A DNA stretch of 64,000 nucleotides from Myxococcota bacterium (GTDB lineage: Bacteria > Myxococcota_A > Bradymonadia > UBA4248), in contig JAZUKH010000046.1 of NCBI GenBank assembly GCA_045643185.1, forward strand, positions 10,883 through 74,882. The letters are read 5' to 3'. A program made the translations under genes and the position numbers. The notes beneath the pieces are model-generated. The model saw only the letters and a list, made by a program, of their open reading frames with translations, was not told where the DNA came from and did no database searches. Positions 11,722 through 42,067 of the stretch are shown here, piece after piece; the first letter of the stretch is position 1; each line of letters starts with the position of its first letter.

Positions 11722-12180
11722 CTACTTGTTTTCTGAGTTGTCGTATATTTCATTATATAAATCTCTGGCTTTTTGTAAGAAGAATAGCATGTATGATTCG
11801 TTTGAATCAATACCATTATTCAGAGTGCTTATCATGTCATTTAAAACATAAAACCCCGTGTTTGCGTATTCTTCAGCATATTGGTACGCTAAAGAATCAT
11901 CATCCAAATTTTCAATTTCGTTATCATGGATAAGTTGATTGATAAGAATTGAGCGCAAAGTGGCTCTTTTGAAATAATCCAGAGTTTCTGAGCGGATAAA
12001 GTCCACGCGTTTTTTTAGTGGTTTTCGTTGACCATTTTCAATGCCAATAGCGACTGCAAATAGAAACAGATCACTTCGATCACAAGATGACTTACCCAGT
12101 TTCATGAAGTCTAAATCATCGATTTGTGGTATGATTTTAGATTGAACGTATGAATCAATATAAATTCTTGGTTCTTGCAT
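11722..12180 (-). CDS. Hypothetical protein, last gene of the AT-rich 6-gene operon
   Basis: AT-rich codon usage matching the island; start immediately follows the upstream stop (12180/12183). Confidence 0.5.
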   Translation of the reverse strand: MQEPRIYIDSYVQSKIIPQIDDLDFMKLGKSSCDRSDLFLFAVAIGIENGQRKPLKKRVDFIRSETLDYFKRATLRSILINQLIHDNEIENLDDDSLAYQYAEEYANTGFYVLNDMISTLNNGIDSNESYMLFFLQKARDLYNEIYDNSENK

Positions 12181-12182
12181 GA

Positions 12183-14168
12183 TTAAATCTCCTTAATGGC
12201 ATTGGTGTAGATTTCATCAATTGGTTTGAGAATGTGTTTGCTTGCTACAATCGTATTTGTGAATTGAGCTTGTATTTCTTTTGAAAATTCAGAGGGTGTT
12301 AGGGCAAGAATGATTTGCTTTGTTTTGCTGATTTCGACAAGTGATTTTGCAAAATTGGATCGATTTTCTGTATCGACACGACCAACAGGAGTATCAATAA
12401 ATAATAAAGAATCAAAACCAGATATTCTATGCATGGCAAGTGTAAAAGCTAAGGCTAATAATTGGCGTTCTGCGGATGAACCGACTAAATCTGTATTATT
12501 TAAATGTTTATTGTAAACGGCCATGTTATAGTCTTCATCGAGCGTAATGCGATCAAATGTATTCTTTTTCCACTCTAACTTTTCAAAAATCCGCATAGTT
12601 TCGGTTTCAATTTGTATTCGAAGGTCTGAGATGCATTTTGTTTTTAATTTTTCAAGAAGATCTAATGCATTGGTCGCAAATAGATAGTAATTATTAACAA
12701 TCTTATTGCTTTCTTGTTTCTGAGTGGCTTCAATTAGTTTTGTTTGATATTCCTTAATCTTTTCTTGGCATTTGTTCAGTTTAGGTGTTAATTGTCCAAT
12801 TTCTTCAGAATCCTTAGCAATTTGATTACGGTAAAAATTTCGTCGTTCAATACAATTTGTAATTTCATCAGGGTCAGGACATAGCTTAATTTTATTGATA
12901 AGTTCTTCCTTGGTTAACTCACATTCTCGTATTTTTTGTTCGATGTGAGCCTGTTCTTTTATAAGACTATTGATTTGATCATTCAAATCGCGTGGCCTTG
13001 AACACCATTTTTCAAGATCACTTTTGATTTCAACGAGTTTGTGTGATACTGATGATGAAAAATTAATCTGGTCAAGTAAATTTTGAATTTTCTGGATAGC
13101 TGTTTCGGATAAGTGACTACCACAGATTTTACATTGTTCATCTTTTAATGTATCATTTAGTACGCTGATATCAATACGAGGAGGAAGTTGTCCTTTGGTG
13201 CTGGCGTCGATGATGTAATGGTATACGGATTGATTTGTTTTATATAAGATAATTGAAATAAATAGATCTCGTGTTAATTTATAAAGTTTGGATTTGTTTG
13301 TATTTAAAGTTTTGTTGAAGTCATCGATCTGGGATTGGGTTAAGTCGAGCTGCTTTTGTTCGTCAGCGATGCATTCCATGCCAGAAATTTGTCTTGTGAG
13401 TCGTTCGAATTCTCTATTTGAAATAGCTCTATCCTGATTTAAGGTGTTTATTTTTCTTTCATATTCATCTTTTGATTGTTTACAATTGTTTAATTCTGTT
13501 TCGATTTCTTGACATTTTGGAATGTCTTTAGAGATTTGTTTGCAATATGAACTTATTACGCCTCGTAAATCGTTTTCTAGGTTTTCTAGATCAGTGATTT
13601 TTGACATCTTATAAATAGAACTTCTTACATTTTTTTGTTGTTGACTATCGAAATAGTCTGATAACTGCTCACCATCAAAAAAGAAGTATCCTCGAATAGC
13701 TTGGGGAAATTTTGAACGAATTATTTCTGTGGCTTCAGCATTCGTTTTAACATCTGATTGGTTTGTTAATAAATTAGTTTGTGTGACAATAAACTCATCT
13801 GCACCAGTCATTTCTGTTCTGACGCTGTATTTTAAAGATCGTTCTATTGTCAATTTTATGTTTTCTATTGTGCTGCGCGCTATTATCACAACTTTTACTG
13901 CGACAAACTCATCACCAATGCCTTTTGTTTCAAGAATCGATTTTGCATTGCAAATTGATTTTTTATCATTTCTATACGTTAATGACCCAATATGTGGCTC
14001 ATCATTATATAAACACCAATTGATGGCATTTAACAGGTTGGTTTTGCCAACGCCGTTACGACCGATAATGATGTGTAGGTCAGCATTGCCCTGATTGGGC
14101 TGATCAAATTGAAAGAAAGCATCCTGATATTGACGGTAGTTAATGATTTTGACGGAATCAATTCTCAT
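12183..14168 (-). CDS. SMC-like Rad50/SbcC-family ATPase with a central CxxC zinc hook
   Basis: N-terminal Walker A GRNGVGKTNLLNAINWCLY; long central coiled coil containing CKICGSHL; C-terminal LLFIDTPVGRVD (D-loop/Walker B region). Confidence 0.7.
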   Translation of the reverse strand: MRIDSVKIINYRQYQDAFFQFDQPNQGNADLHIIIGRNGVGKTNLLNAINWCLYNDEPHIGSLTYRNDKKSICNAKSILETKGIGDEFVAVKVVIIARSTIENIKLTIERSLKYSVRTEMTGADEFIVTQTNLLTNQSDVKTNAEATEIIRSKFPQAIRGYFFFDGEQLSDYFDSQQQKNVRSSIYKMSKITDLENLENDLRGVISSYCKQISKDIPKCQEIETELNNCKQSKDEYERKINTLNQDRAISNREFERLTRQISGMECIADEQKQLDLTQSQIDDFNKTLNTNKSKLYKLTRDLFISIILYKTNQSVYHYIIDASTKGQLPPRIDISVLNDTLKDEQCKICGSHLSETAIQKIQNLLDQINFSSSVSHKLVEIKSDLEKWCSRPRDLNDQINSLIKEQAHIEQKIRECELTKEELINKIKLCPDPDEITNCIERRNFYRNQIAKDSEEIGQLTPKLNKCQEKIKEYQTKLIEATQKQESNKIVNNYYLFATNALDLLEKLKTKCISDLRIQIETETMRIFEKLEWKKNTFDRITLDEDYNMAVYNKHLNNTDLVGSSAERQLLALAFTLAMHRISGFDSLLFIDTPVGRVDTENRSNFAKSLVEISKTKQIILALTPSEFSKEIQAQFTNTIVASKHILKPIDEIYTNAIKEI

Positions 14169-14365
14169 TTTGAAATCTCCTTAGATGTAACATTTCTATT
14201 GATTTCGTTATAAGTCTTTTCTATGATCTTTTGACAAGTCTTTTTATTGTGGATTCTATCATTGAATTGATAATTAATTAGCCTTTGTAATAACTCTTGA
14301 ATGCTTTTGTCGCCACGAGTAACTTCAAGAAGATTCTTTTCGATGAGTTCATTAAGATTTCCCAT
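14165..14365 (-). CDS. Small 66-aa protein, translationally coupled upstream of the SMC-like ATPase
   Basis: ATGA overlap with the downstream gene; lies inside the operon. Confidence 0.4.
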   Translation of the reverse strand: MGNLNELIEKNLLEVTRGDKSIQELLQRLINYQFNDRIHNKKTCQKIIEKTYNEINRNVTSKEISK

Positions 14366-14377
14366 AATATTCTCCTT

Positions 14378-16486
14378 TTATATTAAACCAGTTTTGGTTA
14401 TATCGGCAACCGCCTGGCTTCCGTTTATTGCTTCAGTAGCTATAGCAAAGATTCGTTTCATTTCTTTTTTGAAGATTCGCTTATCAAAATTTCTTTCTTC
14501 ATTTGACCAATCAGAATAATCAGGAGTGACAACAAAATCATCTATATAGGCAAGCTGTTTGTTGCCGTTATCACGTAGCACTCTACCTAAACGCTGAATA
14601 TACTCTCTTGCGTTCTCACTACTTGACAATAGAATTGCCCGTGAGGCTGTCTTGATGTCAATCCCTTCGTCCAGACATTTTATCGCAACAAGTATCTGAT
14701 AATAGCCGTTTCGAAATTTTTCAAGGATATCTTCTCTTTCAGATATACCCTTATCATCAATTTTTGTTGATTCGGACTGCGTAAATCGATGGCCAGATAT
14801 ATTAAGCTTAACAAGTAGTTCTTCAACTTTATCTATCTGTTTGTCTGAGACATAGATAATAGTATCACGAATGTCTGAAATTGAGGAGAGAAGAATTTTT
14901 AATGCAGAGATCTTGTGTTCAGCATTTTTAACGATATTTGCTCTTTTGAATAGCAGTTGTTCATATTTTTCATTATTTTCTATGTCATCATCTTTTGTGT
15001 GAATTAATTTGGATAATTTCTTAGTCAGCTTGTTATATTCGCTAGATTCGTTCTCAGTTAAATTGATAGGATATATATTGTATTTATAACTCACAAGAAA
15101 TGTACGATTTGTTACTGGGTTGATTGTTGTTAATGCATCATGTAATGAAAAAGTGAATTCATTGTTCATAAAATACGATTTAAGCAGATTTGTTCCTTCT
15201 TCATCGAACCATCTATCTGGAGTGGCGCTTAAACCGAGCCGATAATCGTATTTATCGAGCAATGACTTTTTGGTTTTGGAGGCTCCCATGCCATGGACTT
15301 CGTCCCCTATAAGCATGGTTTTATAACTATAGGATTTGATAATCTTTATAAAATCATCAGTGCACGCTGAACAGTGTGTTACATAGATAAGAATTTGTTT
15401 ATAAATTCCAAGATTAGCTTTTTGAAGAACACAGTTCAGATCTTTTTTCCAATTTGTGTGGTTACTATCGCAGACAATTGTTTGATCAAATCGAAGTTGG
15501 AGTGAATCGATTTCCTTTTTCCATTGAGATTGGAGTGTAATTTGTGGAATTGCTATGATTGTCAATAATTTTTGACAATTTTGTTGCGCATTTTCAAGAC
15601 ATTTTACTGCTGTGAAGGTCTTTCCTGTTCCAGTGGCCATTTCGAGCAACATAATTCTGTTACATTCGATCCAGTGTTCAATCGCTCTATTTTGATATGG
15701 AAAAGGCAACTTTTCAGATTGAGGCTTTGTAATAATTGATACACTTGTGTGATATCGGTTTTCGCGATATCGATCTAGAGATAGCTTATCATTTTGATAA
15801 TCTTCGCCTCGTTCTATTAGACGTTGTTTGACCGCAGTTGGTAAGTCTATGACTTCTAGCGAAGCGACGCTGTTATTCCACATTGAGTTAAAGTCGTTTT
15901 GGTGTCCTTGAAAGTATTCTCGTTGACCCGCATTCCAATTTTTATATACCTCGAAACGTTCATCATTCCATAACCAACCTGAGGCCGATTCATTGTTTGA
16001 ACCACTAAAAGAAATGCCATAATCGATTGATTTATTGTCGTACAGAATGCCAAACTTTTGATGCATAATGGGATTGTTGGCTGTATTCCTTACGTCTTTT
16101 ACGATAGCTATTTTTATTTGAAGTTTATTATTGGCCAACATCCAGCCAAGTGCTGCAATATGATCATTGAGAAAGTAATCAGGAATGTCTTCGATTGCAG
16201 TGATCATAGATTCTTCTAGAATCTTGTTTTGGTTTTCAATGACATTTTGAATGGTTTTAATATCATCATCACTTAGTTTTGGACATGTAATGAGTCTCAT
16301 GGTGCCACCATTTGCAATAAGCCCACCAATGCCTCGAGCTGCAATAGCTAAACTAGTTGATGAAAAATACCCCGATATTCTGTCATATTTCCTGGCTTCA
16401 CATAGTGCGGGAATATAGAAATCAGAGATCAAGTCGTCTTCTGAGCTTTTATATTGTATTTTTATGGGCAAATCCTTCAAGCTCAT
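14378..16486 (-). CDS. Fusion of an N-terminal PLD (HKD-motif) nuclease domain to a C-terminal SF2 DEAD/DEAH-box helicase
   Basis: IMHQKFGILYD...GSNN HKD-type motif (single copy); helicase motifs MATGTGKT (I), IGDEVH (II), LSATP (III), QRLGRVLR (VI). Confidence 0.75.
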   Translation of the reverse strand: MSLKDLPIKIQYKSSEDDLISDFYIPALCEARKYDRISGYFSSTSLAIAARGIGGLIANGGTMRLITCPKLSDDDIKTIQNVIENQNKILEESMITAIEDIPDYFLNDHIAALGWMLANNKLQIKIAIVKDVRNTANNPIMHQKFGILYDNKSIDYGISFSGSNNESASGWLWNDERFEVYKNWNAGQREYFQGHQNDFNSMWNNSVASLEVIDLPTAVKQRLIERGEDYQNDKLSLDRYRENRYHTSVSIITKPQSEKLPFPYQNRAIEHWIECNRIMLLEMATGTGKTFTAVKCLENAQQNCQKLLTIIAIPQITLQSQWKKEIDSLQLRFDQTIVCDSNHTNWKKDLNCVLQKANLGIYKQILIYVTHCSACTDDFIKIIKSYSYKTMLIGDEVHGMGASKTKKSLLDKYDYRLGLSATPDRWFDEEGTNLLKSYFMNNEFTFSLHDALTTINPVTNRTFLVSYKYNIYPINLTENESSEYNKLTKKLSKLIHTKDDDIENNEKYEQLLFKRANIVKNAEHKISALKILLSSISDIRDTIIYVSDKQIDKVEELLVKLNISGHRFTQSESTKIDDKGISEREDILEKFRNGYYQILVAIKCLDEGIDIKTASRAILLSSSENAREYIQRLGRVLRDNGNKQLAYIDDFVVTPDYSDWSNEERNFDKRIFKKEMKRIFAIATEAINGSQAVADITKTGLI

Positions 16487-17214
16487 ATATTAATTCTCCA
16501 GTCGATGCAATCCATTAGCTGAATAAGGTAGGATCCAGATAATGCGAATGTTAAGACCTGCTTCGTGTTAGCTTGGCGTCTTACTGCAGTTTTGTATGAA
16601 ATCGAAGATAAACAACTGCTATAGCTCCAAAATCCTTTGGTGTATATTGATTTTAAGATCGTTTGTATGAAAATATTAGAAAATAAAAGCTTTTTTATAA
16701 GCGATGAACGTATTGTTAACGGGTAGATGAGCATTTGATTGCTAAGTGCTGTTATCCTTACTTTGATTGGCTTTTCTTCGCTAATGGTTACCAATTTCAT
16801 CATGGCCGCAAGCTTAGCATGGTTTTCACCATATTTTAGTTGAGCTCCTGGTGTTTTGGATTGTATCAATTGGTAGCCTAAATCTTTAAATCCCATGCCT
16901 TGAGGCATGAATGACAAAATCTCACTTACTCTGAATATGCCATGTTCAAAATTGCTAAAACATGGTATGTCGTTTGCCAATAAAGTAACTTCTTTTATAT
17001 TATTGTCGTTAAAAATCTGATTGATAAAAGCCTCTTCAGAATACTCATTTAGTTTTTGTATGAAAATTTCTAATTCGTCTTTTGAAGCATTGTTGATAAT
17101 GTTATTTATTTCTGGTTCGTTGGTTAAGAATTTATGCAAAAAATCGTCATAAAATTGAGAATTGTAGGCCTGATCGAGATTGTTAGTATTCGCATCTGGA
17201 TATGTGTTATTCAT
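16483..17214 (-). CDS. Hypothetical protein (no recognisable motif), operon member
   Basis: ATGA overlap with the downstream gene; AT-rich island codon usage. Confidence 0.5.
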   Translation of the reverse strand: MNNTYPDANTNNLDQAYNSQFYDDFLHKFLTNEPEINNIINNASKDELEIFIQKLNEYSEEAFINQIFNDNNIKEVTLLANDIPCFSNFEHGIFRVSEILSFMPQGMGFKDLGYQLIQSKTPGAQLKYGENHAKLAAMMKLVTISEEKPIKVRITALSNQMLIYPLTIRSSLIKKLLFSNIFIQTILKSIYTKGFWSYSSCLSSISYKTAVRRQANTKQVLTFALSGSYLIQLMDCIDWRINI

Positions 17215-17216
17215 TA

Positions 17217-18395
17217 CTAAACCTCATTATATCTCATGTCGAAATACTGCTTCGCTATTTGTGGATAGTCTCGCTCAATCTCGAGCAGAGCTTTCATTGA
17301 AGAACAGTAAGTACCTTGTGTTTTGTGAAGAGCCTGATTAGCTTCACAGAACTGGCGAAAACTCATTTTTTTGAGCATGTTTGGTTGGTTGCACCAGCGT
17401 GCGATGCTGACATATAAACTTGAATATGGCGAGATTTTCCAGGGTGTTTCGTTTATATTCTGGTATCGCATGATATAGGGAAGACATTTATAGCGAAGAA
17501 GCAGTTCAATGCGTTTGAATGCATTGGCAATATCCGTGGCATCGGTGCTTTTGAAGCCTACTAGTACATAGAATTTTACACTCGTTGATTGAGTATATTT
17601 TCGAATTAATTTCAGTTTTTGCTCGATAAGCTTATAATCTTCTACGTTATCGAAGGCGAACGTGAAGTCACCATCGTAGTGTGCGTTAAACAGCATTTCA
17701 CATTTTTCTTCGGTGAGTATGCGTTCGTCCAGGCCTTGTTTGAATTTAAAGGGTTTATTGGTGTCGATGAGCTTTTGGAGTAGCGTTTTCCATTTGGGAT
17801 AACCGAGAAAATTGTCGTCTAAAAGGCAAATCTTTTTTAGGTTCTGGTCTAAAAACTCCTCCAAAGGACTATGTTCGAAAACATGGTCATATTTTTGATT
17901 CACGCAGAATGGACAGCGTCTGAAACAGCCTCTTGTCAAAAATCCAATCGAATAATTTGTGTATTCCTTGAATTGAGTCATGAATGATGACTTATTAAAG
18001 TTCTTCCCTTCTTTTAATTTGGTTAATTCGGCCTTCTGGACTTCGTCGGCTATCCATGCGTCATAAAGATGATAATCTGGACAACAGTGTTCGATTTCTG
18101 GGAGGAGGTTAGGTGCTTTGTCGAAATAAAATCCAGTTCCACCAATAGAAACATTTTTATGTTTCGTCAGGTTGATGGGAAAGAGTGGATCTGTTCCAAC
18201 AGGTGTGTCTGTAAATACTTTGGAAACAAAGACATGCTCATAGGCCTCAAGATTTTTGTAGTCAAGTTTGAGTTCGACTGCTTTGCCTTGGGCTTTGTAG
18301 TATGCCGAGAGTTTTTCGCTTGCGAGATTGGGAAAGCGATGTTTATCGCGGGCGATCAGATCTGCATCAATGATGGCAATGGTCATGATAGCCAT
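17217..18395 (-). CDS. Radical-SAM-like protein (CxxxCxxC), possibly with an N-terminal B12-binding-like domain; first gene of the operon
   Basis: GFLTRGCFRRCPFCVNQ contains C-x3-C-x2-C at about residue 155; RBS AGGATGG. Confidence 0.5.
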   Translation of the reverse strand: MAIMTIAIIDADLIARDKHRFPNLASEKLSAYYKAQGKAVELKLDYKNLEAYEHVFVSKVFTDTPVGTDPLFPINLTKHKNVSIGGTGFYFDKAPNLLPEIEHCCPDYHLYDAWIADEVQKAELTKLKEGKNFNKSSFMTQFKEYTNYSIGFLTRGCFRRCPFCVNQKYDHVFEHSPLEEFLDQNLKKICLLDDNFLGYPKWKTLLQKLIDTNKPFKFKQGLDERILTEEKCEMLFNAHYDGDFTFAFDNVEDYKLIEQKLKLIRKYTQSTSVKFYVLVGFKSTDATDIANAFKRIELLLRYKCLPYIMRYQNINETPWKISPYSSLYVSIARWCNQPNMLKKMSFRQFCEANQALHKTQGTYCSSMKALLEIERDYPQIAKQYFDMRYNEV

Positions 18396-18436: not shown

Positions 18437-18449
18437 CCCCCCCCCCCCC
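18437..18449. repeat. Homopolymeric C13 tract in the leader/promoter region of the island operon
   Basis: CGCCCCCCCCCCCCCG read directly; lies between a TATAAT-like box (minus strand, ~18460-18465) and the start codon. Confidence 0.8.
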
Positions 18450-18814: not shown

Positions 18815-19405
18815 TTAGATTTCGTGTTTTTCGACGAGCGTGCGGATGATGCAGGCGGGCGTGTAGAATTCACCGGCGTTTTGGCCTTCCTGACTGGTGA
18901 ACTTAGAGAGGTAGTATTCATAGGTTCGCCCGAGCAAATCTTTGTCGTGCATCTGCGCGTTCATGTCGATATTGGTAAAGAGATTGATGACTTCGCCGAG
19001 TTTTCGTTTGTCAGAGTTCGGGGCGCGCAAAGTTCTTGGGCAGAATGCTGGCAAGTGAAGTGTTTTAGCCTTCGATGGAGGGCAAGGCCTGATCGATCGT
19101 CGTGCCGTTTGTCGCGTTGTGCGCATCGGTTGCAATGACTTTCTAGCGCGCATTTTCGGGCACAAAAAAACGTGCTCTGCTACGTATTCATCTCGATCTT
19201 CTTCAAACCCCTAACCCTCGCCTTCTTCGACGAGCTCCCGATATCGTGCTTCAAAGCGATCGCTGATGTGTTTTAGGAAGATGAGCCCGAGGATAACGGA
19301 TTTATATTCAGCTGCATCGATGTTGCCGCGAAGATTGTCCGCCGCTTTCCAGAGTTTGTCTTCAAATCCAAGTTCTGTTGTTGAGGTTTGGGTTTTCTTT
19401 GCCAT
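18815..19405 (-). pseudogene. hsdM: Decayed type I restriction-modification methylase (hsdM) remnant in two frames
   Basis: Fragment A (19211-19405) LGFEDKLWKAADNLRGNIDAAEYKSVILGLIFLKHISDRFE matches the HsdM_N domain; fragment B (18815-19165, other frame) LLGRTYEYYLSKFTSQEGQNAGEFYTP matches the start of the N6-MTase domain, then stops. Confidence 0.7.
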
Positions 19406-19672
19406 GGTTTTTGTTTTTGTAAATTGTAGGTTGTAGCCATCGAGCCCATCTTGCGTTCCGCTTCGACGGACCCGATTATTATTGTTATGGACAGTTTTAT
19501 AGAGACTCAATAGCAGCGCCTTCCAGGCGCCTTTTTCGGGGATTGTTTTACTCCGGAGGCGGTCGCTACGCGCCCACCCCCGGTTATGCAAGACATCGGC
19601 TTCCAGCCGAATATCTATGGCCATAACAATAATTGCTCATTGTAGTGTCGCCTTCGGTGTGCGCGAAGCGCA

Positions 19673-21325: not shown

Positions 21326-22480
21326 TCAAGTTCCTTGGAGTGTGCTTTTACAATAGAATGGTACCAGATAATCTATAAATCCTTCTTCAACTTCGCGATT
21401 GGGAAATTTTAATGTATATTCATCAAAATCCGGATCGTAATCTGATATGGTTAAATAACCAGTCTGATAAAGGATCGGAACGGGATCCTCGCTGTCGAAA
21501 TCGATATTTTCCAAATTACTTCCTTTGGTCGTAATTCCGTTAATTTCGTCGAATTGCCAGTGATTTTTATGAATCATTTTTGCCAGAATATCTGGTGTAC
21601 CTGTCGCAAACCAGAATTTGCCAAAGCGAAGACTGTTAAAGGCACTGAGCAGGCTGAATGGATTATACATGCCCGGTCCCTCGGCAGTGAAATGATAGCC
21701 ATCATAGAGTTCTTTTAGCTTCGATTTGGTCTTTTCAATCGAGATTTTCTGCTTTTGAGCGAGCGCTTCGATGTCATCTTCAAATTGCGTTAAAACTTCG
21801 TTTTCAGAAATGCCGCAAATTGCAGAAAACTGTTCATCCAGAGAAATGTCTTGCAGGTTGTTGAGTTCACTGAAAACACTGAGTTTTCCCATTTTGCTCA
21901 CACCGGTGATGAACACAAATCGGATATGTGCGTCTTCGCTTTTCAGGTTGCCGTACAGCCCTCGCAAGGTCGTTCTGTGTTTTTCACGAAGCTCGGGATA
22001 GTCCATGGATTCGACGATCGGTTTTTCGTATTCATCGATCAGGATGACGACTTTTTGGCCGGTCTTTTGGTGTATCGTTTGAATCAGGCGCTGAAAGCGG
22101 ACGTTGAGTTCCAAATCAGCAGGTTCAAGGCCATATTGTTTTTCCCATTCATGAAACTGATAATTCAGTTTGGATCTAAGTTCGCCCTCTTCCGCATAAT
22201 TCGCGCCGTTAAAATCGATCCGCAAAACTGGATATTTGATCCAGTCGTGTTCGATCTGTGCCATGGCGAGCTGGTTGAACAGTTCTTTTTTTCCCTCGAA
22301 ATAGGCTTGTAGCGTGGACAGAAGCAGGCTTTTTCCGAATCGACGCGGGCGTGCAAGGAAATAGTAGCCTTTGTCCTTTGCGATTTCGTAAACCAAGTCC
22401 GTTTTATCGACGTAATAGAAACCGTCTTCACGAATATTTTCAAATGTTTGAATGCCGATCGGGTATTTTTTCTTAGCCAT
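21326..22480 (-). CDS. Predicted AAA-ATPase-like (PF09820-type) protein, truncated or split before its nuclease module; start at MAKKKYPIGIQ
   Basis: YPIGIQTFENIREDGFYYVDKT...FLARPRRFGKSLLLSTL family signature; the upstream extension in the ORF track is read-through of a repeat element. Confidence 0.6.
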   Translation of the reverse strand: MAKKKYPIGIQTFENIREDGFYYVDKTDLVYEIAKDKGYYFLARPRRFGKSLLLSTLQAYFEGKKELFNQLAMAQIEHDWIKYPVLRIDFNGANYAEEGELRSKLNYQFHEWEKQYGLEPADLELNVRFQRLIQTIHQKTGQKVVILIDEYEKPIVESMDYPELREKHRTTLRGLYGNLKSEDAHIRFVFITGVSKMGKLSVFSELNNLQDISLDEQFSAICGISENEVLTQFEDDIEALAQKQKISIEKTKSKLKELYDGYHFTAEGPGMYNPFSLLSAFNSLRFGKFWFATGTPDILAKMIHKNHWQFDEINGITTKGSNLENIDFDSEDPVPILYQTGYLTISDYDPDFDEYTLKFPNREVEEGFIDYLVPFYCKSTLQGT

Positions 22481-22656
22481 AGTCAACCTCACAGGTGTGC
22501 ACGCGCTACCAATCCGTATTATAGCATACATTTTGTTGGTATTAGTACGTGGAGACGTGAGTCTCGAAGTTGAGACGTGCAGGTCATTTTGACCAAGCCA
22601 AGCCGCTAGGTTGAGGTGCACTACTGACTGGTGTGGGCAGCGTGCCATGGGGTTAT

Positions 22657-22752
22657 GGGCCCTGCCAGGTGAAGGGGTAGCGGCGTATTTTTTCCATGAT
22701 GCCACGCAGCATCATGGGAAAAATAGCCGCGTAGGGGAAGGCCTTCCCCTTC
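22657..22752. repeat. REP/MITE-like intergenic repeat, copy 3
   Basis: GCCAGGTGAAGGGGTAGCGGCGTAT-[palindrome TTTTTTCCATGATGC..GCATCATGGGAAAAA]-TAGCCGCGTAGGGGAAGGCCTTCCCCTTC. Confidence 0.85.
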
Positions 22753-40483: not shown

Positions 40484-42067
40484 TTGGCAATGGGTTTGTT
40501 TGTTAATCCAACGGAAGCTTTGTTGAGAATGGGCGTTCGCTCGAGAATTTATGTCGATAAATCGATGTTGATTCACGAGCTCAATCAGCTTTTGAATACG
40601 GAAGAACGCTTCGTGTGCGTATCACGTGCGCGCCGTTTTGGCAAGTCGATGGCTGGTGCCATGATTGCCGCCTATTACAGCAAACTCGCCAAGTCGCGCC
40701 CCATTTTTGAAAAGCTCAAGATCGCGCAGACGTCCGATTTTGAAACGTATCTTAATCAGTTTAACGTTATTCACATCGATATTAACGCGTGTTATTCGAG
40801 TTCAACGCGTCATGAAGACATTGTGCCGTTGTTTACAGCGAACGTGCGTGAAGAACTCCAGGAACAATTTCCAAATTGTGGTATCAACGAACGTGATGCA
40901 CTCGACAAGTGCATTATGAAAATTTATTCAAGAACAGGCGAACAATTTGTATTGATTCTTGATGAATACGATGTTTTGGTGCGCGAAAAAGTGAATGCAT
41001 CGATTTTTGATTCGTATTTGGCTTTTCTCAATGCGATGTTTAAAAATGTAAACCTGGCACCTGCATTTGCACTTGTATATTTGACAGGCATTTTGCCCGT
41101 CGTGCGCGATAAAATTCAATCCAAACTCAATATGTTTCGTGAATATACAATGATAGAGGCTGATCAATTCACTCCATATATAGGATTTAGCGAGGATGAA
41201 GTAAAATCGTTATGCCAAAAGCACGATATGAGTTTTAGCGATTGTAAACGTTGGTATGATGGTTATAAGCTCTATGGTCATAGTTTTTATAATCCATGTT
41301 CTGTTGTGAATGCCATGGTTTCACATCGTTTTGGAAGTTTTTGGACGCAAACAGGATCATATGAGGCACTTAAACAATATATATTAATGAATTTTGAGGG
41401 CATTCGTGATGATGTGTTGACGATGATTGCAGGTGGAAGTGTAAGCGTGAATGTGACGAGTTTCATGAATACCATGACCGATTTTCATACCAAAGACGAT
41501 GTTTTTACCTATCTTATTCATCTTGGCTATCTTGGCTATGATCAAAAACTCCAACGATGTTTTATCCCAAATCAAGAAGTACGTCAGGAATGGATTAATT
41601 CTATTCAAACAAGTTCAGATTATGCCCAAGCGCTTTGCATTGTAAAACATTCTAAAGATTTATTAGATCTTACGATCAATGGCGATGAAAAAGCCGTTGC
41701 TCACGCTATTGACGATGCTCATACCGAACTTGTATCGAATTTACAATATAATAATGAAGGTTGTTTTCAGAGCGTGATTCGCTTCGCCTATTTTTACGCT
41801 AATACACGCTACACTGTGATTTCTGAGTTGCCTGCTGGCAAGGGGTACGCTGATATTGCGTTTATTCCTTATATCCCCAATACGCCAGCGATGATCGTTG
41901 AACTCAAGCGCAACAGCTCCACCGAAACAGCTCTGACGCAGATCGAAAACAAACAATATGATAAAGCCCTTGAACATTATCAGGGCGATCTATTATTTGT
42001 CGCCGTGAATTATGACGAAAAGACGAAAGAACACACGTGTGAGATTAAACGGTTTGTGAAAGAATAA
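40484..42067 (+). CDS. AAA-ATPase-like (PF09820-type) plus C-terminal PD-(D/E)XK nuclease protein; intact paralog of 20950-22480
   Basis: YVDKSMLIHEL...SRARRFGKSMAGAMIAAYY N-terminal signature; C-terminal GKGYADIAF...IVELKRN PD-(D/E)XK-like motif. Confidence 0.65.
   Translation: MAMGLFVNPTEALLRMGVRSRIYVDKSMLIHELNQLLNTEERFVCVSRARRFGKSMAGAMIAAYYSKLAKSRPIFEKLKIAQTSDFETYLNQFNVIHIDINACYSSSTRHEDIVPLFTANVREELQEQFPNCGINERDALDKCIMKIYSRTGEQFVLILDEYDVLVREKVNASIFDSYLAFLNAMFKNVNLAPAFALVYLTGILPVVRDKIQSKLNMFREYTMIEADQFTPYIGFSEDEVKSLCQKHDMSFSDCKRWYDGYKLYGHSFYNPCSVVNAMVSHRFGSFWTQTGSYEALKQYILMNFEGIRDDVLTMIAGGSVSVNVTSFMNTMTDFHTKDDVFTYLIHLGYLGYDQKLQRCFIPNQEVRQEWINSIQTSSDYAQALCIVKHSKDLLDLTINGDEKAVAHAIDDAHTELVSNLQYNNEGCFQSVIRFAYFYANTRYTVISELPAGKGYADIAFIPYIPNTPAMIVELKRNSSTETALTQIENKQYDKALEHYQGDLLFVAVNYDEKTKEHTCEIKRFVKE

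Follow-up and report, generated by a model that had tools for sequence, protein, structure and literature searches.

A radical-SAM gene pair heads a Pbe-type operon encoding a CxxC ABC ATPase in a Myxococcota bacterium

Analysis of a 64,000-nucleotide (nt) stretch of DNA from a Myxococcota bacterium (GenBank assembly GCA_045643185.1, contig JAZUKH010000046.1, positions 10,883 to 74,882 of the forward strand; hereafter the window, with positions counted from its first letter) identified the 661-amino-acid (aa) ATPase encoded at 12183..14168 as almost certainly PbeC, a member of the PbeABCD (Pbe) systems. Its gene lies in an operon headed by a radical S-adenosylmethionine (SAM) enzyme and a 243-aa partner, referred to here as RS392 and X243. 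The explanation that best accounts for the locus as a whole, and that we consider probable, is that pbeC belongs to a Pbe-type restriction system marked by radical-SAM chemistry. An initial annotation of this DNA, made from the sequence alone, had proposed a zinc-hook ATPase that has small partners but lacks Mre11, and thereby correctly rediscovered a family already described. Neither the ATPase with its hook nor the two small partners are new to the literature; the radical-SAM context is the new part. The operon and its genes are as follows.

11722..18395, minus strand: operon RS392-X243-pbeA-pbeB-pbeC-pbeD, six same-strand open reading frames (ORFs) of 392, 243, 702, 66, 661 and 152 aa
17217..18395, minus strand: RS392, 392-aa radical-SAM enzyme (likely true start 18386, which gives 389 aa)
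16483..17214, minus strand: X243, 243-aa partner of RS392 and putative DNA-target-recognition subunit
14378..16486, minus strand: pbeA, 702-aa HKD (PLD-family) nuclease fused to a superfamily 2 (SF2) helicase, the effector; PADLOC PbeA, E = 6.5e-217
14165..14365, minus strand: pbeB, 66-aa fast-evolving protein whose ATGA overlap with pbeC couples the translation of the two
12183..14168, minus strand: pbeC, 661-aa CxC/Zn-hook ABC ATPase of the sister clade of DndD; PADLOC PbeC, E = 5.2e-79
11722..12180, minus strand: pbeD, 152-aa protein of the dnd_assoc_4 family

The operon is a horizontally acquired, tightly packed six-gene unit. It occupies a low-GC island (11722-18395) with sharp borders and a GC content of 35.1%, compared with 52.9-53.5% in the flanks; the spacing between its genes ranges from -4 to +12 nt, and a Shine-Dalgarno (SD) sequence precedes every gene. 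RS392 and X243 are separated by 2 nt, X243 and pbeA overlap by 4 nt (ATGA), and 12 nt lie between the end of pbeA and the 66-aa ORF, pbeB, whose TGA stop is contained in the ATGA that holds the start codon of pbeC. An AAGGAGA SD sequence is located 7 nt 5' of the pbeC ATG and another 5 nt before the pbeB ATG, and this arrangement bears out the translational coupling of the 66-aa ORF to the ATPase that had been noticed earlier. The pbeD gene, which starts 2 nt past the pbeC stop, is likewise provided with an AAGGAGA. All six ORFs are intact and of full length compared with their homologs, and the six genes very probably constitute one functional unit.

Assignment of the ATPase to PbeC was based on a full-length profile match, in which residues 2-621 aligned with positions 2-617 of the 618 positions of the PADLOC PbeC profile. 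Every one of the 25 best PADLOC families for this protein was PbeC or DndD, which also settles against Lamassu and Wadjet the comparison with LmuB, JetC and DndD that had been proposed for it. The Rad50/SbcC identity originally suggested had to be given up in view of the PbeC match; NCBIfam Rad50 models reached residues 1-58 only, at 36-37 bits against cut-offs of 700-1087, and the ATPase was rejected as a Rad50/SbcC protein. It was rejected as an SMC or RecF protein as well, the corresponding NCBIfam models touching the P-loop N-terminus or short stretches of the coil at scores far under their cut-offs. Pfam matches comprised AAA_15, SMC_N, AAA_27 and AAA_23, and the closest database relatives of the window PbeC were 36-38% identical to it. 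DndD, the nearest named family, shares with PbeC the head motifs FFDGE, SAAE and IDTP, a similar coil length and a small DNA-binding partner; the two differ in that DndD serves modification and PbeC the restriction side, and in that DndD lacks the CxxC hook (PMC10853773) that PbeC possesses. The NCBIfam DndD model TIGR03185 scored 124.4 bits, under its cut-off of 245.85, and on the strength of this score and of the CxxC the protein was excluded from DndD. The Aravind group has assigned PbeC to its 'CxC ABC ATPase' clade, which is sister to DndD and distinguished by an apical Zn-hook (PMC10853773).

The sequence motifs of PbeC are listed below, with invariance judged from an alignment of 32 database homologs that are 30-37% identical to the query.

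14040..14063, minus strand: Walker A GRNGVGKT, residues 36-43; N38, G39, G41 and K42 invariant
Residues 162-168, minus strand: FFFDGEQ, read from the sequence
13122..13133, minus strand: CKIC (C346-x-x-C349), residues 346-349, putative zinc-hook motif at the coil apex
12462..12479, minus strand: signature-like SSAERQ, residues 564-569; S564 and E567 invariant
12372..12407, minus strand: Walker B/D-loop LLFIDTPVGRVD, residues 588-599; F590, I591, D592, T593 and P594 invariant

Both cysteines of the hook motif, C346 and C349, were invariant in all 32 homologs. In the AlphaFold2 model of PbeC (mean predicted local distance difference test (pLDDT) 82.7), residues 1-170 and 535-661 form the head, from which helices ascend (175-324) and descend (355-529) as an antiparallel coil. 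The sole central non-helical stretch comprises residues 325-354, and C346 and C349 lie there in a short beta knuckle, which places the CxxC at the predicted coiled-coil apex. In the PDB, the Rad50 structure 7zr1, which includes the coiled coil, gave the best fold match (E = 1e-19), ahead of JetC, SMC heads and LmuB, with E values of about 1e-12 to 1e-14 for LmuB and JetC. The Rad50-like architecture of ABC head, antiparallel coil and apical CxxC seen by the initial annotation thus stands, as do the conservation of the CxxC and its location at the apex. In Rad50, the apical CxxC motifs of two chains share one Zn2+. Because each PbeC chain has only two invariant cysteines, an inter-chain Zn2+ site is the economical reading for PbeC, too. 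At the coil apex of SMC-type ABC ATPases, a hinge domain takes the place of the Zn-hook (PMC10853773).

These structural likenesses are what would favour an orphan Rad50/SbcC protein or a Lamassu- or Wadjet-like SMC, acting in repair or plasmid restriction together with kleisin-like small ORFs: the best folds are those of Rad50, JetC, SMC proteins and LmuB, the hook resembles that of Rad50, and small ORFs adjoin the gene. LmuB and JetC are, moreover, coiled-coil ABC ATPases that act in defence with a nuclease. Such an identity is nevertheless very improbable for the window protein. The PADLOC and NCBIfam scores place it in PbeC/DndD, a different sequence family from LmuB and JetC, with Rad50, SMC and RecF models far under cut-off; its arms of about 150-175 residues each are roughly half the SMC length and much shorter than those of Rad50/SbcC; its gene lies in a low-GC island; and it is accompanied by PbeA, PbeB and PbeD rather than by Mre11/SbcD, LmuA/LmuC or JetABD. 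Nothing marks either small ORF as kleisin-like; both are real and conserved partners of the ATPase, identified as PbeB and PbeD.

The statement that no Mre11/SbcD nuclease is present was right insofar as the operon encodes no SbcD-like protein; the nuclease partner, the HKD-helicase PbeA (14378-16486), is encoded directly upstream and had been overlooked. In addition to the PADLOC match, PbeA was recognized by NCBIfam TIGR04095 ('DNA phosphorothioation system restriction enzyme', dnd_restrict_1; E = 6.7e-108) and by the Pfam models ResIII, Helicase_C and PLDc_2. Its motifs are intact, both in the HKD nuclease (HQKFGILYD, GSNNES) and in the helicase (ATGTGKT, GDEVH, QRLGRVLR).

Conservation of the 66-aa ORF is strong for its position and weak for its sequence. 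A scan for PbeC relatives, restricted to one genome per species, yielded 78 loci (homologous loci from all scans are numbered with the prefix L), and nearly all of the non-cyanobacterial ones have, between pbeA and pbeC, an ORF of 49-69 aa that usually meets or overlaps the pbeC start. No BLAST similarity was detected between the window PbeB and the PbeB of the nearest homolog locus, L001. A profile built from 31 other PbeBs nonetheless ranked the 66-aa ORF first among 493 six-frame window ORFs (E = 3.4e-4, residues 3-50 aligned), and the small partner that had been predicted to accompany the ATPase in related genomes is hence indeed found there.

PbeD was matched by TIGR04062 (dnd_assoc_4) with E = 8.1e-7 and 29.3 bits, under the cut-off of 74.25; the same model matched 17 of 32 PbeD orthologs, with a best E of 2e-16. 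A database protein identical to the window PbeD (P0438) carries PF27807, the PbeD of locus L001 is 30% identical to it (E = 2e-22), and an AEEYANTGF motif is common to the orthologs. According to the Aravind group, PbeD is a cognate of DndE, with two ribbon-helix-helix units, and PbeB is a small, fast-evolving protein (PMC10853773). A side observation concerns five loci from Methanobacterium and Bathyarchaeia (L024, L041-L043, L052), in which the PbeD ORF is 311-317 aa long, about double the usual length, with the PbeD domain N-terminal and followed by an extension of about 170 aa without assignment. No X243 could be detected there, and its place might be filled by the extension.

The pbeABCD genes were named by Xiong et al. 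in 2019, who found all four to be essential for protection against the virus SNJ1 (Haloterrigena jeotgali; PMC6459918). The window operon agrees with PbeABCD in its HKD/SF2 PbeA, small PbeB, CxxC ATPase PbeC and dnd_assoc_4 PbeD, in their order, and in the sizes of PbeB and PbeD, which at 66 and 152 aa equal those of H. jeotgali (PMC6459918). It differs in its company. PbeABCD protection needs phosphorothioate (PT) (PMC6459918), and the reported partners are dndCDEA (Xiong et al.) or a cytosine methylase and MTaX1 (Aravind group). A Pfam scan of the plausible window ORFs between 1 and 50 kb detected none of these partners, and no dnd, ssp or intact DNA methyltransferase gene; the only methylase-related matches were two N-terminal fragments of hsdM. 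In place of these partners, the window operon is headed by the radical-SAM enzyme and its 243-aa partner.

This linkage is not peculiar to the window. The RS392-X243 pair was located 5' of pbeA in almost all close relatives, and the loci of the nearest PbeC homologs (L001-L004) have the identical six-gene order, which recurs among loci of the sets L001-L004, L008-L048 and L086-L152. Of the six proteins, RS392 shows the highest identity to its L001 counterpart (60%), followed by PbeA (46%), PbeC (36%), PbeD (30%) and X243 (27%), with no identity found for PbeB. An RS392-family gene was present in 35 of the 48 non-cyanobacterial PbeC genome loci and in none of the 30 cyanobacterial ones; most of the 13 non-cyanobacterial loci without it are contigs too short to judge. 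In the divergent loci of Bathyarchaeia, Methanobacteriaceae, Brocadiia and Anaerolineae the RS392-family gene (profile E from 1e-14 to 1e-39) is retained, although it lies directly 3' of pbeD or at another place in the locus. Another 16 loci with the identical six-gene order came from metagenomes scanned with RS392 as the seed. Furthermore, RS392 and X243 were fused in 20 genome loci (613-711 aa; L011-L017, L020, L022, L023, L026-L030, L032, L036, L038, L044 and L048, mostly Lachnospiraceae, Bacteroidaceae and Muribaculaceae) and separate in 8. By the Rosetta-stone argument, this recurrent fusion indicates that the two proteins act together.

The same distribution bears on the simplest alternative, namely that the operon encodes a canonical PT-dependent PbeABCD that reads dnd or ssp marks made elsewhere, with the radical-SAM pair unrelated or accessory, for example by providing Fe-S or sulfur chemistry for PT. 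The sole experimentally studied PbeABCD is PT-dependent (PMC6459918), only 64 kb of the genome are visible, and the cyanobacterial PbeC relatives adjoin dndD, dndE and dndA: some of these loci have a second DndD-like gene 3' of pbeC, followed in L056, L059 and L076 by DndE, and one Anaerolineae locus counted as non-cyanobacterial (L050) also carries DndD, DndE and a DndA-like gene. We nonetheless regard this alternative as unlikely. Radical-SAM and dnd linkage were mutually exclusive in the sample (35 of 48 non-cyanobacterial versus 0 of 30 dnd-linked loci), the pair is fused in 20 loci and joined to the Pbe genes by overlapping junctions in one operon, no dnd-like gene was found in the scanned ORFs, and RS392 has a single conserved cysteine triad and no auxiliary cluster for sulfur insertion.

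RS392 is a member of the radical SAM superfamily, as judged from its cluster motif, its fold and its match to phrog_9298 ('radical SAM domain protein', E = 1e-51). The position of the cluster motif is given here.

17904..17927, minus strand: CFRRCPFC cluster motif (CxxxCxxC) of RS392

Neither NCBIfam nor PADLOC gave an assignment for RS392, nor did Pfam above its cut-offs, Radical_SAM (PF04055) reaching E = 0.011 and 16.3 bits against a cut-off of 29.5; a sequence search against the PDB returned noise only. The AlphaFold2 model (pLDDT 95.1, predicted template modelling score (pTM) 0.91) predicts an N-terminal flavodoxin/B12-binding-like domain followed by a radical-SAM barrel, for which the best Foldseek matches were MiaB, MtaB, MgmA and RimO, with E of about 1e-6 to 1e-7 at 11-13% sequence identity; viral fold matches included phage proteins annotated as 'COG1032 Fe-S oxidoreductase'. 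RS392 shares the two-domain architecture and the CxxxCxxC motif with MiaB, MtaB, RimO and MgmA. It differs from them in lacking a conserved N-terminal cysteine triad for an auxiliary cluster and in lacking TRAM, and its genomic setting points to DNA as opposed to tRNA or protein. C157, C161 and C164 are each at least 95% conserved and no other cysteine exceeds 57%, and there was no Pfam match to TRAM or UPF0004; a methylthiotransferase of the MiaB/RimO type was rejected on account of the missing auxiliary-cluster cysteines and TRAM. The motifs SKVFT and GGTGF are kept in the N-terminal domain and may recall the SxL...GG part of cobalamin-binding domains. Given the predicted B12-domain-like N-terminus and the MgmA/COG1032-like fold, RS392 may be cobalamin-dependent. 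The family is large: one search returned more than 6000 matches, and clustering at 50% identity gave 162 clusters whose E did not exceed 1e-30.

X243 had no match in Pfam, PADLOC, NCBIfam, PHROGs or a PDB profile search. Its conserved motifs are QFS, GA..KYGENH and S.ST..RR..N (S-T-x-x-R-R-x-x-N), and these basic motifs, taken together with the fusion to RS392, make it a putative targeting subunit.

RS392 was also found in two settings away from Pbe. In the first, the RS392-X243 pair heads a six-gene cassette together with a ParB_N protein, a protein of about 135 aa, an SNF2 helicase resembling ZorD/DpdE and an HTH_ParB protein (L005, 9001-14786; L007, 9001-14765; L088, L090 and L094). This cassette is carried by integrative or mobilisable elements. 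PADLOC returned no named system for the ParB/SNF2 module, which in combination with RS392-X243 is a candidate for an undescribed restriction-modification (R-M)-like system. In the second setting, RS392 homologs of 44-54% identity occur without X243 in phages and prophages (L166, L107, L113, L114, L117, L122, L123 and L127-L132), beside N6/N4 and C5 DNA methyltransferases near HNH and terminase genes; the RS392 gene stands ahead of the terminase genes, adjoining orphan DNA methyltransferases or between them. Such surroundings are classical for phage anti-restriction modification genes. In a cultured Oscillospiraceae phage, NatCom_21982 (L166, PV036431.1, 27726-31855), the RS392 gene is flanked on one side by a type II methyltransferase and on the other by a 605-aa orphan C5 methyltransferase, and it overlaps the upstream methyltransferase gene.

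Because the phage homologs sit among orphan DNA methyltransferases and because the pair joins a second helicase/ParB module, RS392 is hinted to be a DNA modifier. That it modifies DNA as a self mark is, from this genomic context, a prospect that we rate just short of even. The same evidence was weighed against an abortive infection or suicide mechanism, in which phage enzymes would remove a negative regulator, PbeB, whereupon PbeA would attack any DNA, that of the host included, and RS392 would be an effector, a maker of a viperin-like signal or a modifier of a protein or peptide such as PbeB. A suicide model has been laid out by the Aravind group (PMC10853773); PbeB evolves extremely fast, with no similarity even to that of the closest locus, radical-SAM enzymes often act on nucleotides or peptides, and none of the folds closest to RS392 belongs to an enzyme of DNA. 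The phage homologs, however, stand alone among DNA methyltransferases with no PbeA or PbeB nearby, which fits DNA protection better than host suicide; PbeB also occurs in canonical Pbe systems, which lack a radical-SAM gene; and RS392, fused as it is to a separate conserved domain (X243) and paired with two different helicase modules, looks like the modification half of an R-M-like system. On balance, a suicide mechanism appears improbable.

The reading that we prefer, a Pbe-type restriction system with a radical-SAM mark, would operate as follows. By analogy with Rad50 and other ABC ATPases, two PbeC protomers would meet at their ATP-bound heads, and at the far end of arms of about 150 residues one Zn2+ would be held by two cysteines from each chain. 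The resulting clamp would embrace DNA and, with DNA-binding PbeD supplying DNA recognition, scan or loop it. PbeA would translocate on DNA without the self mark and cut or block it, with PbeB as a fast-evolving regulator or trigger sensor, roles suggested by PbeABCD genetics and by domain content. Gene context suggests that the self mark in this system would be something other than PT, installed by RS392 with targeting by X243, and that the cassette would amount to a complete R-M-like system with radical-SAM chemistry as its modification side. More tentative still, and in our estimate somewhat less probable than DNA modification by RS392 as a self mark, is the full scheme in which RS392 and X243 install a new DNA mark that replaces PT and is read by the PbeC-PbeD clamp and PbeA, RS392 also serves the ParB/SNF2 module, and phages use RS392 alone for anti-restriction. 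Candidate chemistries include methylation of an unactivated carbon or of the backbone.

Such an arrangement has parallels in Dnd, Ssp, Dpd and the methylase-linked R-M-like systems, where a modification module and an ATPase/helicase/nuclease module also share a mobile island; in all of these, too, different restriction modules exchange the modification module, and the modification gene occurs by itself in phages. The difference is that the modification enzyme proposed here is a canonical radical-SAM protein. To our knowledge, no described R-M-like system has a radical-SAM modification enzyme, and none came to light in the literature that was searched. The original description of CxC systems is reportedly that of Krishnan et al. 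in 2020 (NAR 48:10045).

Several points weigh against the radical-SAM reading. Its novelty is one of them: the report by Krishnan et al. lay outside the literature covered and may already mention the linkage, although no description of a radical-SAM Pbe variant was found in PMC6459918, PMC10853773, their supplements or full-text searches. Literature that links radical-SAM enzymes to defence, to DNA modification or to Pbe, ParB or SNF2 proteins was searched as well and yielded unrelated systems only, for example Ophion. The visible sequence amounts to 64 kb and the scan to 1-50 kb, and dnd genes could sit elsewhere in the genome. The nearest solved folds of RS392 act on tRNA (MiaB, MtaB) or on protein (RimO, MgmA), not on DNA. 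PbeD, to which the mechanism assigns DNA recognition, gave a probability of 0.3% when its profile was compared by hhalign with four canonical DndE sequences, whose identity had been confirmed by comparison with DndE entries of the PDB, and DndE was likewise missing from the results of a PDB profile search with PbeD. The predicted Zn binding and dimerisation of PbeC derive from two invariant cysteines and a monomer model; moreover, the window PbeC is without the histidine that most homologs have at position -2 of the CxxC (residue 344), and Gly563, directly before its signature motif, takes the place of a cysteine present in at least 90% of homologs. Finally, no DNA cleavage by PbeABCD was seen (PMC6459918), and 'restriction' may in fact be blockage of replication.

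The radical-SAM context is relevant to a question left by Xiong et al. (2019), who reported that 320 of 553 PbeAC pairs (58%) have no nearby dnd genes (PMC6459918), and for these pairs the means of self/non-self discrimination was left open. RS392-X243 is a testable candidate for one large clade that includes Bacillota, Bacteroidota, Actinomycetota, Methanobacteriaceae, Bathyarchaeia, Brocadiia and Anaerolineae. If RS392 does modify DNA, this would represent a new DNA modification chemistry and enzyme class and a new module for R-M-like immunity, would explain part of the self/non-self recognition by 'solitary' PbeABCD, and would bear on the transformation of gut anaerobes and on phage-host prediction.

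In related genomes the cassettes are found in mobile surroundings. In L001-L003 (1-3833) and L005 (3085-8481) they adjoin serine recombinases, a tyrosine integrase, a relaxase, primase-like genes and phage capsid genes, and because of these neighbours the Pbe and ParB/SNF2 cassettes are taken to travel on integrative mobile elements or prophages. At the borders of the window island itself, no convincing flanking direct repeats or att sites were detected, and promoter and terminator scans performed no better than on shuffled sequence. Two fragments of a type I hsdM gene (18815-19165 and 19211-19624, minus strand), which match HsdM_N and the first 40 positions of N6_Mtase, end where the low-GC island starts; an earlier type I R-M locus was apparently displaced or cut short by the island.

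One further feature lies upstream of the operon.

18437..18449, minus strand: poly-G tract of 13 nt, about 40 nt 5' of the first start codon of the operon

This tract is the sole G/C homopolymer of at least 10 nt in the window, where 0.01 would be expected by chance. It was missing from 108 of 110 homologous loci, on which ground it was discarded as a feature of the family, and it may be a slipped-strand phase-variation switch peculiar to this lineage. A tract of 13 G that could switch the operon off, the adjoining truncated hsdM fragments and the lack of two highly conserved residues in PbeC could also be taken as signs of a decaying remnant without present function. With six intact ORFs, all catalytic motifs present and a strong SD sequence for each gene, decay is scarcely credible.

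Elsewhere in the window, two genes of the 'AAA-ATPase_like' family (PF09820) were observed, at 21326-22705 (minus strand) and 40484-42067 (plus strand), the second also encoding a PDDEXK_9 nuclease domain; a homolog flanks the RS392 cassette in L007. The region from 38 to 46 kb, of lower GC content (41-46%), encodes a 1307-aa cEGF/CPL1-like repeat protein.

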